From Burkholderiales bacterium (GTDB taxonomy: Bacteria; Pseudomonadota; Gammaproteobacteria; Burkholderiales; SG8-39), in the NCBI GenBank assembly GCA_035286595.1, contig DATEDA010000069.1, positions 10,497 to 74,496 on the forward strand: 64,000 nucleotides of DNA, in the 5' to 3' direction. This document shows, in pieces, positions 1,756 through 54,665 of the stretch. Under the pieces are notes generated by a model that ran no database searches, had not been told where the DNA came from, and saw only the letters and a list, made by a program, of their open reading frames with translations. Each line of letters starts with the position of its first letter. The stretch's first letter is position 1. Both the position numbers and the translations under genes were made by a program.

Positions 1756-1817
1756 GGGAGCCCGCCGGGCCGCCCCAAGGGCGAACCCCGAGCGCGTCGC
1801 GCGAGGGTAGTCCAATG
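1756..1817 (+). repeat. Degenerate copy of the ~60-nt sense-oriented repeat unit (family shared with 15577-15704 and 46517-46593)
   Basis: gGGAGCCCGCCGGGCCGCCCCAAGGGCGAACCCCGAGCGCGTCGCGCGAGGGTAGTCCAATG is near-identical to the other units. The leading ATG is replaced by GGG and the trailing TGA by TGG. Confidence 0.85.
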
Positions 1818-15580: not shown

Positions 15581-15642
15581 CGGACTACCCTCGCGCTTGA
15601 CCGCGCTCGGGGTTCGCCCTTGGGGCGGCCCGGCGGGCTCAT
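15577..15642 (-). CDS. Candidate repeat-encoded mini-ORF 2 (21 aa, [21 protein letters not shown])
   Basis: ATG at 15642 is preceded by GAGGG plus 7 nt. Its TGA overlaps the rsgA ATG as ATGA. Translation is unproven. Confidence 0.3.
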   Translation of the reverse strand: MSPPGRPKGEPRARSSARVVR

Positions 15643-15704
15643 TGGACTACCCTCGCGGCTACGGCCGCTCGGGGTTCGCCCTTGGGGCGGCCCGGCGGGC
15701 TCAC
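15639..15704 (-). CDS. Candidate repeat-encoded mini-ORF 1 (21 aa, [21 protein letters not shown])
   Basis: The GTG at 15704 lies 1 nt after the M48 stop. Its TGA overlaps the next ATG as ATGA. Translation is unproven. Confidence 0.3.
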   Translation of the reverse strand: MSPPGRPKGEPRAAVAARVVQ

Positions 15705-40041: not shown

Positions 40042-43020
40042 ATGTTAGTTACCTCGATCGAAGTCCCCGAGGGGGGCACGGTGGGAAACCGAACGACTAC
40101 AACGAGACTGCTGGCCCTTCTGACGCTCGCGTTGCTGCCGTTGGACGTGCTGGCGGCCGGTCTGGGGCGGCTCGCCGTTTTGTCCGGCCTGGGTCAGCCG
40201 CTGCGCGCCGAGATCGAGGTCGTGTCCCTGCAGCGGGGCGAAGCCGAGTCGCTGAGCGCGAGGATCGCGACGCCCGACGCGTTCCGGGAAGCGGGTGTCG
40301 AGTATGGAGCGGCCGTACCGCGTGTCCGCACCGTGCTCGAGCGCCGGCCCAACGACCGGTACGTGATCGTCCTCTCGACCCCGCAGCCGGTCGAAGAACC
40401 GTTCCTCGATCTGCTCGTGGAATTGAACTGGGCCTCGGGTCGGCTCGTGCGGCAGTACACGTTCCTGCTCGATCCCGTGGACTACCGGGGGCCCCAGCCG
40501 ATCGCCGCCGCACCGTCGCGGCCTGCGACGACCGAGGTGCGGCCGGTCGAAGCGCCACGGCCCCCGGAAGTCAGCGCGGCCGCACCGGCCGCACCCGCTG
40601 TTGCGCCGCCTGCGGCGTCCGCAGAGCCGGCGCCGTCGGCGCCTGTGGCGCCACCACCCGCCGAGACGCCAGCCGCGCAAACGCCAGCCACACCGGCACC
40701 GGCACCGGCACCGGCTGCGCCAGCGTCGGCGGCGCAAGCACCGGCCGATGCGCCCAAGCTGGCGAGCGAGCCCGTCGCCACCTATGAAGTGCAGAAGGGC
40801 GACACGCTGAGCAAGGTCGCGTTGCAGTACAAACCCGAGGGCGTCACGCTGCAGCAGATGCTCGTGGCCCTTTATCGCGCGAACGAGGACGCGTTCATCC
40901 AGAAGAACATGAACCTCGTCCGCGCGGGGCGCGTGCTCACGATCCCGGACCGCGAGGCCGTCGAAGCCGTCGCCCCCGCCGATGCCGGGAAGCTCTTCGT
41001 CGCGCAATGGCAGGACTTCAACGAATACCGCGCCAAGCTCGGCGGGGCAATCGCGGCGGCGCCGGCCCAGACCGAGGCGCCGCAGCAGCGCGCGGCCGGC
41101 CGGATCACCGAGCCGCCCGAGGCGACGGCAGCCGCGCCGAAGGCCGCACCGCGCGACGAGCTGCGGGTCTCGAAGGCGGACGATGCGGCGAAGAGCGCGA
41201 AAGCCGCCGCCGCGGCCCGGGCGGACGATCTCGCGGCGCGCGAGCGCGCGCTCCAGGAAGCGAGCTCGCGCGTCGGCGACCTGGAGCGAAACGTCAAGGA
41301 TCTCCAAGGTCTCGTCGAACTGAAGAACAAGCAGCTTGCCGACTTGCAGAAGCAGGCGGAGGCGGTGAAGGGTGCAGCGGCGAAGGCCACCGACGCTGAA
41401 GCCGCGAAGGCGGCGGCGGCGAAGGCCACCGCAGCGGCGAAGGCCACCGACGCTGAAGCCGCGAAGGCGGCGGCGGCGAAAGTCGCCGAGGCGGAGGCCG
41501 CGAAGGCTGCAGCGGCGAAGGCCACCGCGGCGGAGGCCGCGAAAGCCGCCGCAGCGGCGGCTGCCAAGGCGCCCGAGCCGGCGAAGGCCGTCGAGGTCGC
41601 GAAGGCGCCCGAGGCGCCCAAGGCCGCCGAGCCGGCACCGACCGCGCCCGCAAAGGCGCCCGAAGCGCCGAAAGCCGAGGCGCCCAAAGCCCCCGCGCCG
41701 CCCAAGGCTGCGGCGGCACCGAAGAAGCCCGCGCCGCCCCCGCCTCCCGAGCCGAGTCTCGTCGAAGCGATCCTGGACGAGCCGCTCTACCTCGCCGGCG
41801 GAGGGGGCGGGATCCTCGCCCTCCTGATCGGGGGGTATCTGTGGCGAAAAAAGCGCAGCGCCAAGCTGGAAAATAGCCTGCTTGGCGTGACGACCACCGA
41901 TTCGAGCTCGGTCTTCGGCAGCACTGGCGGGCGCAGCATCGACACGGGTGGCAGCTCGCTCCAGACCGACTTCAGCCAGAGCGGGATCGGCGCGATCGAC
42001 ACCGACGAGGTCGATCCGGTCGCGGAAGCGGACGTGTACATGGCCTACGGCCGCGACGCCCAGGCCGAGGAGATCCTCAAGGAAGCGCTGCTGAAGGACC
42101 CCAACCGCCAGACGGTGCGCGTGAAGCTCCTCGAGATCTACGCGGCGCGCAAGGACCTGAAGGCGTTCGAGACCACGGCCGGAGAGATCTACGCCGCGAG
42201 CGGCGGTCAGGGGCCCGAGTGGCAGAAGGCGATCGAGCTCGGGCTCTCGATCGACCCGAGCAATCCGATGTACGGCGGGGGCGGCGGCCGGCGGGAGGCT
42301 GGTGGCCGCCCGCCCGAGCGCGACACCGTGGTGCTCCCGGCCGCCGGTGGCGCAGCGGCCGCGATGGCGAGCGACCTCGCGTTCGACCTGGCCGGTAGCA
42401 AGGCACCGCCGTCGATCGACTTCGATCTGGGTGGCGGGGGCCGGGGTGCCGCCGCGGCAGTGCCCGACCTCGCGCTCGACGTGGCGAGCCAGGCGCCGGC
42501 GGATCTCGGCTTCGACCTCAACCTCGGTGGCGACTCGCAGAAGCCCGCCGTCGAGGAGGCGAGCGATTTCTCCCCGAGCGGCACGTTCATCATGGACGCG
42601 GCCACGAAGAAAGCGGTCAGCGACATGGTCGAGGCGCAGGGCGCGCCCGGGTCACTCGAGATCGATTTCGAGCTGCCGGGGACGAAGGGCGGCGCGACGC
42701 CCGGGGAGCAGACCGCCAGGATGCAGGCCGCACAGCCGGCCAACGTCACCGAGATCGACTTCAAGCTCGGTGAGCCGACCAAGCCGGCCGCGGCCGCAAT
42801 GGATCTCGGCGGGATCAGTTTCGATCTCGGCAAGGGCGGCGGCGAGGGTGCGCCGGTCGACGCCCGCTGGCAGGAGGTGGCCACCAAGCTCGACCTCGCC
42901 AAGGCGTACGAGGAGATGGGGGACAAGGATGGTGCGCGCGAGCTGCTGAACGAGGTCCTGAAGGAGGGCGACGCGGCCCAGCAGCAGCAGGCGAAGCAGA
43001 TGCTCGCGGCAATCAGGTAG
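40042..43020 (+). CDS. fimV: FimV/HubP-family polar peptidoglycan-binding protein
   Basis: 992 aa track ORF; GTG 40081 (preceded by GAGGGG) is the more likely start. FimV N-terminal motif LGRLAVLSGLGQPLRAEIEV. LysM (YEVQKGDTLSKVA...AGRVLTIP). A/K/P/E-rich repeats. One TM segment. FimV C-terminal motif LDLAKAYEEMGDKDGARELL. Confidence 0.9.
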   Translation: MLVTSIEVPEGGTVGNRTTTTRLLALLTLALLPLDVLAAGLGRLAVLSGLGQPLRAEIEVVSLQRGEAESLSARIATPDAFREAGVEYGAAVPRVRTVLERRPNDRYVIVLSTPQPVEEPFLDLLVELNWASGRLVRQYTFLLDPVDYRGPQPIAAAPSRPATTEVRPVEAPRPPEVSAAAPAAPAVAPPAASAEPAPSAPVAPPPAETPAAQTPATPAPAPAPAAPASAAQAPADAPKLASEPVATYEVQKGDTLSKVALQYKPEGVTLQQMLVALYRANEDAFIQKNMNLVRAGRVLTIPDREAVEAVAPADAGKLFVAQWQDFNEYRAKLGGAIAAAPAQTEAPQQRAAGRITEPPEATAAAPKAAPRDELRVSKADDAAKSAKAAAAARADDLAARERALQEASSRVGDLERNVKDLQGLVELKNKQLADLQKQAEAVKGAAAKATDAEAAKAAAAKATAAAKATDAEAAKAAAAKVAEAEAAKAAAAKATAAEAAKAAAAAAAKAPEPAKAVEVAKAPEAPKAAEPAPTAPAKAPEAPKAEAPKAPAPPKAAAAPKKPAPPPPPEPSLVEAILDEPLYLAGGGGGILALLIGGYLWRKKRSAKLENSLLGVTTTDSSSVFGSTGGRSIDTGGSSLQTDFSQSGIGAIDTDEVDPVAEADVYMAYGRDAQAEEILKEALLKDPNRQTVRVKLLEIYAARKDLKAFETTAGEIYAASGGQGPEWQKAIELGLSIDPSNPMYGGGGGRREAGGRPPERDTVVLPAAGGAAAAMASDLAFDLAGSKAPPSIDFDLGGGGRGAAAAVPDLALDVASQAPADLGFDLNLGGDSQKPAVEEASDFSPSGTFIMDAATKKAVSDMVEAQGAPGSLEIDFELPGTKGGATPGEQTARMQAAQPANVTEIDFKLGEPTKPAAAAMDLGGISFDLGKGGGEGAPVDARWQEVATKLDLAKAYEEMGDKDGARELLNEVLKEGDAAQQQQAKQMLAAIR
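41374..41487 (+). repeat. 57-bp tandem duplication inside fimV (19-aa unit AAAKATDAEAAKAAAAKAT)
   Basis: Units at 41374-41430 and 41431-41487 are identical over the first 51 nt. Degenerate A/K/E copies continue to about 41570. Confidence 0.75.
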
Positions 43021-45706: not shown

Positions 45707-46534
45707 ATGTCCCGCATCTCGACCATCTTCGAGCACCTCGCGCGCGCCCGGCGCAAGGCCCTCATCCCGTTCATTACCGCGGGCGATCCGTCGCCGCCGG
45801 CGACGGTGCCGCTCATGCACGCGCTCGTGAAGGCCGGGGCCGATGTCATCGAGCTCGGCGTGCCGTTCTCCGACCCGATGGCCGACGGGCCGGTGATCCA
45901 GCGCTCGAGCGAGCGCGCCCTGAGGCACGGAATCAGCCTGGAGACGGTGCTTGGCTACGCCACGGAGTTCCGGAAGCGCGACGACGCGACCGGCATCGTG
46001 CTCTTCGGCTATGCGAATCCGATCGAGGCGATGGGCGTCGAGCGGTTCGTCGAGCGCTCGCGCGCGGCGGGAGTCGACGGCGTTTTGGTCGTGGACTACC
46101 CGCCGGAGGAGTGCGGCCCGTTCGCGGAGTTGGTGAAGAAGAATGGAATGGATCTCATTTTCCTTCTCGCCCCCACCTCCACCGAATCGCGCATCGAGCG
46201 GATTGTCGGCCTGGCGAGCGGCTACATCTACTACGTCTCCCTGCGCGGGGTCACCGGCGCGTCGCACCTCGACGTTGCCGACGTCGCGGCCAGGCTCGCC
46301 GCGATCCGCCGCAAGACCTCGCTTCCGGTCGGCGTCGGTTTCGGGATTCGCGACGGCGAGACCGCGCGCGCGGTCGGTGCGGTGGCCGACGCGGTGGTGA
46401 TCGGCAGCCGTCTGATTCAGGAGATGGAGGAAGCGCCGCCCGGCGCAGCGATCGAGCGCGCGGGCGCGTTCCTCGCCGGGATCCGTCGGGCGCTCGACGG
46501 CGCGGCGCAGGTTGCGGCGAGGGTAGTCCAATGA
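45707..46534 (+). CDS. trpA: Tryptophan synthase alpha chain
   Basis: 275 aa with [31 protein letters not shown] and VSLRGVTG. The last 6 codons and the stop lie in repeat-element sequence. Confidence 0.95.
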
Positions 46535-46589
46535 GCCCGCCGGGCCGCCCCAAGGGCGAATCCCGAGCGCGTAGCGCGAGGGCAGTCGA

Positions 46590-46593
<4 letters not shown>
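46517..46593 (+). repeat. Partial unit plus one full ~60-nt repeat unit at the trpA/accD junction
   Basis: GCGAGGGTAGTCCAATGAGCCCGCCGGGCCGCCCCAAGGGCGAATCCCGAGCGCGTAGCGCGAGGGCAGTCGAATGA. Same family as 1756-1817 and 15577-15704. Confidence 0.9.
46531..46593 (+). CDS. Candidate repeat-encoded mini-ORF (20 aa, [20 protein letters not shown])
   Basis: Its ATG overlaps the trpA TGA as ATGA, and its TGA overlaps the accD ATG as ATGA. Translation is unproven. Confidence 0.3.
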
Positions 46594-47453
<860 letters not shown>

Positions 47454-53586: not shown

Positions 53587-54081
53587 TCAGCCGGCGACCT
53601 CCGTGCGCTCGATCACCACGTCCTCGAGCGGCACGTCCCCGTGCGCGCCGCGGCGTCCGGTCTTGACGCCCTTGATCCGGTCGACCACGTCCTGCCCCTC
53701 AACGACGCGGGCGAACACGCAGTAGCCCCACCCCTGGGGGGTGGGGACGGTATGGTCGAGAAAGCCGTTGTCGTTGACGTTGATGAAGAACTGGGCGGTC
53801 GCCGAGTGCGGGTCGGAGGTGCGCGCCATCGCGACCGTGTAGCGGGCGTTCTTGAGCCCGTTCGCGGCCTCATTCTTCACCGCCGTCTTGGTGGGCTTCT
53901 GCTTCATCCCCGGCTCGAAGCCTCCGCCCTGGATCATGAAGCCGTCGATCACGCGGTGGAAGACCGTGTTGGCGTAGTGCCCGCCCTCGACGTAGGCCAG
54001 GAAGTTCTTGACGGTCTCCGGCGCGCGCTGGGCGTCGAGCTCGAGGGTGATGGTGCCGAGATTGGTGTGCAGCTTGACCAC
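53587..54081 (-). CDS. ppiB: Peptidyl-prolyl cis-trans isomerase B (cytoplasmic cyclophilin)
   Basis: 164 aa with [15 protein letters not shown] and [10 protein letters not shown]. No signal peptide. Confidence 0.93.
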
Positions 54082-54092
54082 GAGCGCCTCCG

Positions 54093-54665
54093 CTATCTCT
54101 TCGCCGCGACGATGGCCGCGGATTCGATGATCACCGGATCGCGCGGCACGTTCTGGTGCCCCCGGGCGTCCCCGGTCGGCAGCTTGGCGATCTTCTCGAC
54201 CACGTCCATTCCCGAGACGACCTTGCCGAAGACCGCGTAGCCGTAGCCCTGCGCCGTGGCCCCGCGGAAGTTGAGAAAGTCGTTGTCCTTGAGGTTGATG
54301 AAGAACTGCGCGCTCGCCGAGTGCGGATCCGGCGTACGCGCCATGGCGACGGTGCCGTAGTCGTTCTTCAGACCGTTCGCGGCCTCGTTCTCGACCGAGG
54401 CGCGGGTCGGCTTCTGCTGCAGGTCCTTGTTGAAGCCGCCGCCCTGGATCATGAAGCCGGGGATGACGCGGTGGAAGCTCGTGCCGTTGTAATGGCCGTC
54501 CTTCACGTACTGCAGGAAGTTCGCCACCGTCTTCGGCGCCTTGTCCGGGTAGAGCTCGATGACGATCGCACCGTGGTTGGTCCGGAGCTCGACCCGAGGG
54601 TCGGCGGCGAGCGCGGCGTGCGCGGTGGCGAGCGCGAGTCCGAGCGCAATGAGCAGGCTACGCAA
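54093..54665 (-). CDS. ppiA: Peptidyl-prolyl cis-trans isomerase A (periplasmic cyclophilin)
   Basis: 190 aa. Signal peptide [20 protein letters not shown], then [15 protein letters not shown]. Confidence 0.9.

Follow-up and report, generated by a model that had tools for sequence, protein, structure and literature searches.

A covarying hairpin ahead of accD is a module of a short repeat found at start codons in Burkholderiales

Introduction

A 64,000-nucleotide (nt) stretch of DNA from a Burkholderiales bacterium (GTDB SG8-39; GenBank assembly GCA_035286595.1, contig DATEDA010000069.1, positions 10,497 to 74,496 of the forward strand; hereafter the window) carries, between its trpA and accD genes, a short sequence that can fold into a hairpin, and similar sequences recur elsewhere in the window. 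A sequence-only reading of this DNA proposed that in every repeat unit the hairpin sequesters the Shine-Dalgarno (SD) sequence that serves the next ATG, that it is under selection as an RNA fold, and that it makes translation of the downstream gene obligatorily dependent on a ribosome finishing the upstream (mini-) open reading frame (ORF). The locus thus raises the question of what the hairpin belongs to and what keeps it. We found that it did not evolve as a trpA-accD device: more than 100 unrelated loci carry the repeat of which it forms a module, and the unit is absent from the corresponding junctions of relatives. The hairpin probably makes up the 3' module of a dispersed, tandem-capable short repeat of Burkholderiales, which typically sits inside an ATGA stop/start overlap and has the passage of ribosomes built in.

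Results

The hairpin is part of a repeat unit placed at start codons

The four hairpins of the window each belong to a copy of a unit of 59-62 nt (repeat families D8 and D16), and a covariance model of the unit has exactly four matches in the window, with E values between 4e-13 and 4e-22 and the next best at E = 0.011. The proposed fold, CCC-GA-GCGC-loop-GCGC-GA-GGG, is present in all four copies (-11.1 to -15.2 kcal/mol for the isolated hairpins, z = -2.1 to -3.5), and its stem is kept while the loops vary (GUA, GUC, GGUCAA and CGUA), as the sequence-only reading had described. At the trpA-accD junction the letters at 46562-46582 are CCCGAGCGC-GTA-GCGCGAGGG, with the loop at 46571-46573, and the ATG of the unit (46531-46533) overlaps the TGA of trpA (46532-46534). 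By Pfam the gene orders are TrpA, one unit, AccD and, on the other strand, M48 peptidase, two units, RsgA. The first unit of this tandem pair starts with a GTG (15704-15702) that begins 1 nt past the peptidase stop, and its hairpin (15673-15650) has a 5-bp stem, GCGGC/GCCGC, with the loop CGUA (-15.2 kcal/mol); the mini-ORF of the second, whose hairpin (15611-15588) has the loop GGUCAA (-13.4 kcal/mol), ends in a TGA that overlaps the rsgA ATG (15580-15578). The fourth copy (1756-1814; hairpin 1787-1807, loop GUC) is bordered by a TGGG direct repeat and lies between convergent genes, for an SLT transglycosylase and an aminotransferase (Pfam), so that it has no downstream gene to couple.

We then looked for copies in one genome per species, anchoring the search on the invariant 21-mer CCGGGCCGCCCCAAGGGCGAA; the unit and array counts given here (131 units, 119 arrays) come from the matches listed in this search. 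The unit is present at at least 118 loci. All carriers among the loci listed are Burkholderiales (Rubrivivax, Ideonella, Rhizobacter, Piscinibacter, Methylibium, Rhodoferax, Polaromonas, Variovorax, Ramlibacter, Orrella and Casimicrobiaceae), and among the matches listed there are tandem arrays of 2-5 units with a period of 60. The layout runs from the unit's own ATGAGC through two GC-rich hairpins, both of which hold a tandem G.A/A.G motif, and an SD-like GAAGG or GAGGG to a spacer of about 7 nt and the next ATG or GTG. The commonest form, 60 nt long and in frame, reads ATG AGC CCG CCG GGC CGC CCC AAG GGC GAA TAC CGG AGT GCG CAG CAC GAA GGT ACT CCA and is followed by GTG AGC. An ATG or GTG stands at the start of 108 of the 119 listed arrays with an intact 5' edge. 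A co-oriented coding ORF stops exactly at the TGA of the first NTGA in 63 of 109 arrays, an SD-like motif lies just upstream in 20 of the other 46, and the downstream coding phase agrees with the terminal ATG or GTG in most analysable arrays. Together these results indicate that the element is placed precisely at start codons. The unit has no match in Rfam 15 at gathering thresholds, a search at E values of up to 10 gave only chance microRNA matches outside the units, and scans for promoters (-35/-10 hexamers) and intrinsic terminators (GC hairpin plus T tract) returned nothing in or beside the units.

The stem of the 3' hairpin is selected for pairing

We aligned 131 distinct units, drawn from upwards of 100 Burkholderiales loci. 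Pairing in the inner 4-bp helix reaches 95.8%, and the second pair of this helix, 43-55, is U-A in 60 units, C-G in 50, G-C in 16 and U.G in 1, with 4 units unpaired at this position. The observed pairing and covariation were reached by none of 500 shuffles, and sliding the 3' partners by 1-3 columns lowered pairing from 81% to 21-43%; the covariation called for by the sequence-only reading is therefore borne out on a larger set of copies. All three pair types are spread over several 5' backgrounds (14/9/34 on CCGGAG, 1/4/14 on CCGCAG and 4/0/1 on CCGAAG), which implies more than one event, or recombination. Within the tandem mismatches, A41.G57 is retained in 120 of the 131 units and the G.A in 87; class-defining changes replace G.A by C-G at pair 39-60, and in rare variants such as CCTTGTCGC-GAA-GCGACAAGG the mismatches are gone and all 9 arm positions are Watson-Crick. 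The stem is under selection for pairing.

Two qualifications apply. The GCGGC/GCCGC stem of the first rsgA-side unit had been read as a compensatory 1-bp insertion; one nucleotide is indeed added to each arm, but the loop gains one as well, making +3 in total and keeping the reading frame, and the GGUCAA loop likewise adds 3 nt. The same rare stem and loop, GCGGC-CGUA-GCCGC, recurs at a different locus in L074, so that part of the covariation signal is inheritance within element lineages. Furthermore, the mismatches carry no strand signal (9 G.U versus 6 A.C), and a fold of the RNA is not separable in this way from a fold of single-stranded DNA; what stands of the proposed selection on an RNA fold is selection on pairing.

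An alternative helix between GGAGU and ACUCC of the tail was considered and dropped, because position 43 varies without a change in the tail but covaries with position 55. RNAalifold, run on the anchored alignment, returned the invariant 5' helix only, a result made uninformative by the way in which the copies were collected.

The 5' module is probably one extended hairpin

The minimum-energy fold of the 5' half gives the two small hairpins of the sequence-only reading (-14.1 kcal/mol, z = -1.3). However, 22 diverged or sister copies, found with the covariance model and a fuzzy search and aligned by hand as a small sample, are better fitted by one extended hairpin that pairs positions 1-8 with 24-31 and 12-14 with 19-21. 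In these copies compensatory changes are seen at three of its pairs: 7-25 is C-G in 14 and G-C in 7, 8-24 is C-G in 20 and U-A in 1, and 12-21 is G-C in 15, C-G in 5, G-U in 1 and U-A in 1. Of the pairs in the model with two small hairpins, three are disrupted, every one of them in 6-8 of these 22 copies. The mismatches 3-29 and 4-28, which are G.A and A.G in the main family, become G-C and A-U in sister families. For the trpA-accD unit the extended hairpin would consist of A1-U31, U2-A30, G3.A29, A4.G28, GCCC/GGGC and an inner GGG/CCC. On this comparison the 5' module is probably a single extended hairpin with the unit's own AUG in its stem.

A filled and an empty site at trpA-accD

We compared the trpA-accD junction with 80 metagenomic loci that carry AccD relatives of 68-90% identity, 74 of which gave usable junctions. 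At 43 of the 74 the overlap is bare, the TGA of the trpA-side ORF overlapping ATGAGCTGG with nothing between, and the locus of the closest AccD relative (L119, 90% identity) is without the unit. Among the compared junctions L171 alone carries a unit, and since this belongs to a sister family it looks to be an independent insertion. In the window, ATGAGC stands on both sides of the unit as a short direct repeat. The window TrpA also runs 11 codons beyond the usual ...ALD end (46497-46534), where its relatives stop after ...ALDA at the ATGA; the final 20 nt of this extension (46511-46530) match the 3' tail of the unit, which points to a second unit that lost part of its length and became part of the trpA reading frame. 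From these observations we infer that the element is, or was, mobile. For the other loci of the window no orthologous copy at the same junction was present among the fetched loci. L184 has yet another GC-rich repeat-like sequence upstream of accD.

Unit length sets the reading phase

Unit length, measured from the unit start to the next unit or gene start, is 60 nt in 61 units and 63 nt in 1 (in frame, 3n), 59 nt in 10, 62 nt in 7, 65 nt in 1 and 74 nt in 1 (3n+2), and 61 nt in 2 (3n+1); three apparent lengths of 53 nt were artefacts of a TTG within the tail. The 3n units open in frame into the gene. The 3n+2 units, to which all window copies belong, contain an ORF of 20-24 codons that runs across the hairpin to a TGA that overlaps the next ATG. 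An early in-frame stop interrupts one of the 3n+1 units, and the second lies in an array whose start codons have been lost. In seven 60-nt copies that have no 3' start codon (L040, L082, L088, L090, L093, L102 and L117) the frame stays open for 137-725 codons, and the unit ATG appears to be the only start of the gene. A hand count of independent length changes gave about 10 to 3n+2, 3 to 3n and 2 to 3n+1 (hand-calculated binomial p ~0.08), which suggests selection on translation phase.

Overlapping ATGA pairs show tight termination-reinitiation coupling with a variable contribution of the SD (PMC6728339). In the window, ribosomes ending trpA, or the M48 peptidase gene, would reinitiate at the AUG of the unit, read through it, opening its two hairpins on the way, stop at the overlapping UGA and start again on accD or rsgA, where the freed GAGGG may assist. 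The mini-ORF of 20-21 codons in the window's length class has the geometry that termination-reinitiation coupling requires, and translational coupling is plausible for this class.

Discussion

What keeps the hairpin

We favour the reading in which the hairpin is one module of a start-codon repeat through which ribosomes can pass. What selects it could be the spread or stability of the element, or the damping of independent initiation. Several points weigh against this reading. The 21-nt anchor makes the conservation of the 5' half partly a result of how copies were found; the covariation counts are of sequences, not events, and are inflated by element subfamilies; the argument from length classes is only suggestive at p ~0.08; and mobility is read from the copy distribution and from a single comparison of filled and empty sites. 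In addition, we identified no transposase or insertion mechanism, no search having been aimed at a transposase gene.

The alternative that survives best, possible if somewhat doubtful, is that the hairpins act as DNA, being recognition structures for a strand-specific insertion or copying machinery, with the SD and the phase rules as adaptations that make the element harmless. Candidates are an HUH/Y1 transposase as in REP/RAYT or IS200/IS605, which would also explain the NTGA target. Imperfect palindromes with conserved mismatches (above all A41.G57), covariation that follows element lineages with the same variant at different loci, short direct repeats at the unit edges (ATGA(GC), and TGGG in the gene-less copy), hairpins that stay intact in copies without a translational role, and the lack of an RNA-specific excess of G.U over A.C are all consistent with it. 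On the other side stand the transposase gene, neither found nor searched for, the direct tandem arrays, unlike the inverted pairs of REPINs, and the plasmid (PLSDB) and viral (IMG/VR) collections, in which no copy of the unit was present; strict co-orientation with genes is equally expected from a role at the RNA level.

The proposal of the sequence-only reading, that the host maintains the hairpin as a means of hiding the SD, so that downstream translation follows only after the upstream (mini-)ORF is finished, now seems to us rather unlikely as the whole explanation. In its favour, an SD-like motif lies within the 3' arm of 113 of the 131 units (GAAGG in 76, GAGGG in 26 and GGAGG in 11), the unit's own AUG is also in a probable stem, and in the three gene-proximal window copies the mini-ORF does cross the hairpin to a UGA overlapping the next AUG. 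The predicted duplexes with the anti-SD are -4.0 kcal/mol for GAAGG, -6.4 for GAGGG and -10.7 for GGAGG, and the reinitiation class (3n+2, including the window) mostly combines the stronger GAGGG with ATG, while weak GAAGG prevails in the in-frame class, often with GTG. But the only Watson-Crick pairs in GAGGG are those of GGG with CCC, the predicted probability of GAGG being unpaired is about 0.5 in context, and the downstream AUGs are predicted to be open (0.68 for accD, 0.99 for rsgA). Moreover, the in-frame 60-nt copies, which need no reinitiation, keep the hairpin just as intact, as do the seven start-less copies and the gene-less window copy, and native junctions achieve coupling with a bare ATGA, free of hairpins. 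Because the pairing is partial and the hairpin is intact where no reinitiation is needed, SD occlusion alone does not explain its conservation; it is at most a partial and class-specific consequence.

That the encoded peptide matters, as a leader peptide or N-terminal tag, with the hairpin as a by-product of codon choice, is very improbable. The frame does stay open or is neatly terminated, gene callers predict proteins built of units (a database search returned 267 short 'hypothetical proteins' of 40-74 residues composed of them), and the compensatory change G12C/C21G is synonymous, Pro to Pro. However, variation at the covarying stem position alters Ser/Arg jointly with His/Arg/Pro, which is non-conservative, C7G/G25C turns Pro into Ala and Gly into Arg, the 1-nt insertion of sister families alters the peptide while the hairpin is kept, and the 3' half is read in another frame in the window's class. 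As the peptide changes while the hairpin stays, the constraint lies on the nucleic acid. The encoded peptide has no Pfam or NCBIfam match, and a full-text literature search for the motif PGRPKGE retrieved no paper. PGRPKG (unit codons 4-9, for example 46540-46557) is similar to the GRP at the centre of AT-hook DNA-binding motifs, presumably as a by-product of the hairpin sequence.

A chance palindrome in GC-rich DNA, to which one might point because the bare, degenerate 21-mer pattern is not above shuffles (with 3 mismatches, 4 window matches versus 2.45 expected, only the two exact ones being real) and because folding of whole 80-nt units does not beat shuffles in every case (trpA-accD unit, z = -0.05), is refuted by the four covariance-model matches at E <=4e-13, by a family of more than 100 loci and by the shuffle test of pairing and covariation.

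Relation to known repeats

The closest analogue of the pass-through unit is MIRU (mycobacterial interspersed repetitive units; Supply et al. 1997, as summarised in PMC12548453 and PMC3184786), which is described as inserting at start codons together with an ORF coupled at a -4 spacing. To this Delihas (PMC3184786) adds tetranucleotide direct repeats, GC-rich inverted repeats inside the element and ORFs that overlap the neighbouring genes. Both are dispersed units of 40-100 bp that also form direct tandem arrays (here 59-74 nt at at least 118 loci), lie within operons in sense orientation at start codons, carry a small ORF overlapping the stop and start of the neighbours with a -4 spacing, so that insertion would hardly disturb expression, and have GC-rich internal inverted repeats; both also show filled as well as empty sites and short direct repeats, one such locus having been compared here. 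They differ in the host, which is Actinobacteria for MIRU and Burkholderiales for all carriers among the loci listed here, and in the dominant in-frame 60-nt form, which would add 20 N-terminal residues per unit; two hairpins, the tandem G.A motif and covariation are seen here and are not documented for MIRU in PMC12548453 and PMC3184786. Because the listed carriers are all Burkholderiales, we regard the relation as an analogy and not as family membership.

A further comparison is with BRE (Beta-proteobacterial repeat element), a variable-number repeat of 75-91 bp from Bordetella and Comamonadaceae whose function Hot et al. (2011) left open (PMC3110155). Like the unit, BRE is a GC-rich tandem repeat of variable number on betaproteobacterial chromosomes (in Bordetella, Polaromonas, Rhodoferax, Delftia and Acidovorax); copies of both mostly lie between genes, and some overlap the ends of ORFs. 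The 5' modules can be aligned over about 20-27 nt (BRE GCCGCGGGCCGCCCAAGGC, unit GCCCGCCGGGCCGCCCCAAGGGC; BRE letters from a machine-read supplement), and the middle hairpin of BRE, GCCCCCTCGGGGGGC, recurs in 74-nt variants of the unit (L087, L100) and in a sister family (L049, L006). In contrast, BRE has three hairpins and T-rich flanks over its 75-91 bp (machine-read supplement), whereas the window unit has 59-62 nt, begins with ATGAGC and is without the middle hairpin, and no start-codon association, phase rule or covariation is reported for BRE (PMC3110155). A literature search for the time after Hot et al. (2011) retrieved no later functional work on BRE. We treat the window unit as a putative short relative of BRE, associated with start codons and working in the manner of MIRU; it would combine MIRU-type architecture with BRE-related sequence.

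Mobilised by RAYT, REP sequences and REPINs share with the unit short GC-rich imperfect palindromes, many chromosomal copies and conserved stem mismatches. REPs differ in that they lie mostly downstream of genes, often as inverted pairs, and without an ORF or SD, whereas the units are direct repeats, always sense-oriented and located where genes begin; no search was aimed at a RAYT gene. Rickettsia palindromic elements (RPE), like the units here, are palindromic and are tolerated in reading frames, to which they add residues; unlike the units, they are 100-150 bp long, insert within genes and not at start codons, and are not known to have a stop/start overlap. The unit was also considered as a MITE and rejected: its ends, ATGAGCCCG... 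and ...GGTAGTCCA, are not mutual inverted repeats, though a short direct repeat is present.

Sister families of the unit are listed in Table 1. The TGAGCGC...GCGCTCA family, often found in mixed arrays beside the main family, has a 1-nt insertion that gives the peptide MSAPGRSQALI.... It is conceivable, though we hold it to be unlikely, that a Betaproteobacterial superfamily made up of the 60-nt unit, these sisters, the 74-nt forms and BRE specifically targets start codons, its members being self-contained pass-through cassettes whose two hairpins, both with a tandem G.A motif, gate their own AUG and the next SD, or else having hairpins that are the handles of a start-codon-specific insertion machinery. 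If the gating were true, many genes per genome would depend on ribosomes arriving from upstream. The start-codon repeat described here would carry the MIRU principle, insertion at a start codon with an own coupled ORF and the host gene still expressed, into a second phylum, and would offer a possible rationale for Betaproteobacterial BRE-type repeats. In practical terms, the units mislead gene callers into spurious 'hypothetical proteins' of 40-74 residues, wrong starts and 20-residue N-terminal extensions. They may serve as variable-number tandem-repeat (VNTR) markers or as a compact natural cassette for translational coupling, and their covarying tandem-G.A hairpins are a clean target for telling selection on RNA (translation) from selection on DNA (mobility).

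Table 1. Positions of the repeat units, their parts, adjoining genes and sister families. Positions without a prefix are those of the window; L numbers denote other loci.
Feature	Position	Strand	Remarks
Repeat unit, 59 nt	46531..46589	+	Between trpA stop and accD start; covariance model 84.1 bits, E = 3.6e-22
Mini-ORF, 20 codons, out of frame with accD	46531..46593	+	TGA 46591-46593 overlaps accD ATG 46590-46592
5' module of trpA-accD unit	46531..46561	+	Probably an extended hairpin; takes in the unit's own AUG
3' hairpin CCC-GA-GCGC-GUA-GCGC-GA-GGG	46562..46582	+	-11.1 kcal/mol, z = -2.7; covariation in 131 units
SD-like GAGGG in 3' arm	46578..46582	+	7 nt before accD ATG at 46590; predicted anti-SD duplex -6.4 kcal/mol; predicted probability unpaired 0.55
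3'-tail remnant of second unit (GTTGCGGCGAGGGTAGTCCA)	46511..46530	+	Inverted repeat I2, 46511-46571 versus 15602-15662, 95%
Repeat unit, 62 nt, first of tandem pair	15643..15704	-	Covariance model 52.4 bits
Repeat unit, 62 nt, second of tandem pair	15581..15642	-	Covariance model 76.2 bits
Repeat unit, 59 nt, GGG where a start codon is expected at the 5' edge	1756..1814	+	Covariance model 73.2 bits
trpA, upstream gene	45707..46534	+	TrpA by Pfam; stop is the TGA of the unit's ATGA
accD, downstream gene	46590..47453	+	AccD by Pfam; native start ATGAGCTGG (MSW), kept in 80 related loci
Sister-family unit GTGAACGCGCCGGGCCGTCCCAAGCGCGAAC...	L171:677-751		Upstream of accD on an unrelated metagenomic contig
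Sister family, 5' stem TGAGCGC...GCGCTCA	L011:426-487, L036:3953-, L051, L096:3967-		Stem fully Watson-Crick, includes the start-region UGA
74-nt variants with extra middle hairpin TCCCCCTCGGGGGGA or TCCCGCCTGGCGGGA	L087:100-182, L100:4512-4594, L107, L068		3n+2, overlapping TGA
BRE-like family AGTGCCCGCCCGGCCGCCCGAAGGGCACT + GCCCCCGCGGGGGGC + AGCGTGGGGGCC	L049:7428-7512, L006:1010-1094	- (L049), + (L006)	Inner G12C/C21G 5' module, no ATGAGC start

Other repeats in the window

Three further repeats of the window are separate from the unit. Dense imperfect in-frame tandem repeats of Ala, Lys and Pro codons, with periods of 9-24 nt, occupy 41356-41714 within a 992-residue ORF (40042-43020) that, from its position between asd/leu and truA-trp genes, probably encodes a putative FimV-like protein. 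Lys/Ala-rich short tandem repeats (AAGGCNGCGAAGAAA...) at the window start (231-392) suggest a putative histone-H1-like or AlgP-like basic protein. Finally, two 300-nt segments, 53674-53973 and 54189-54488, are 74% identical and lie 515 nt apart, and may be an internal or tandem gene duplication.

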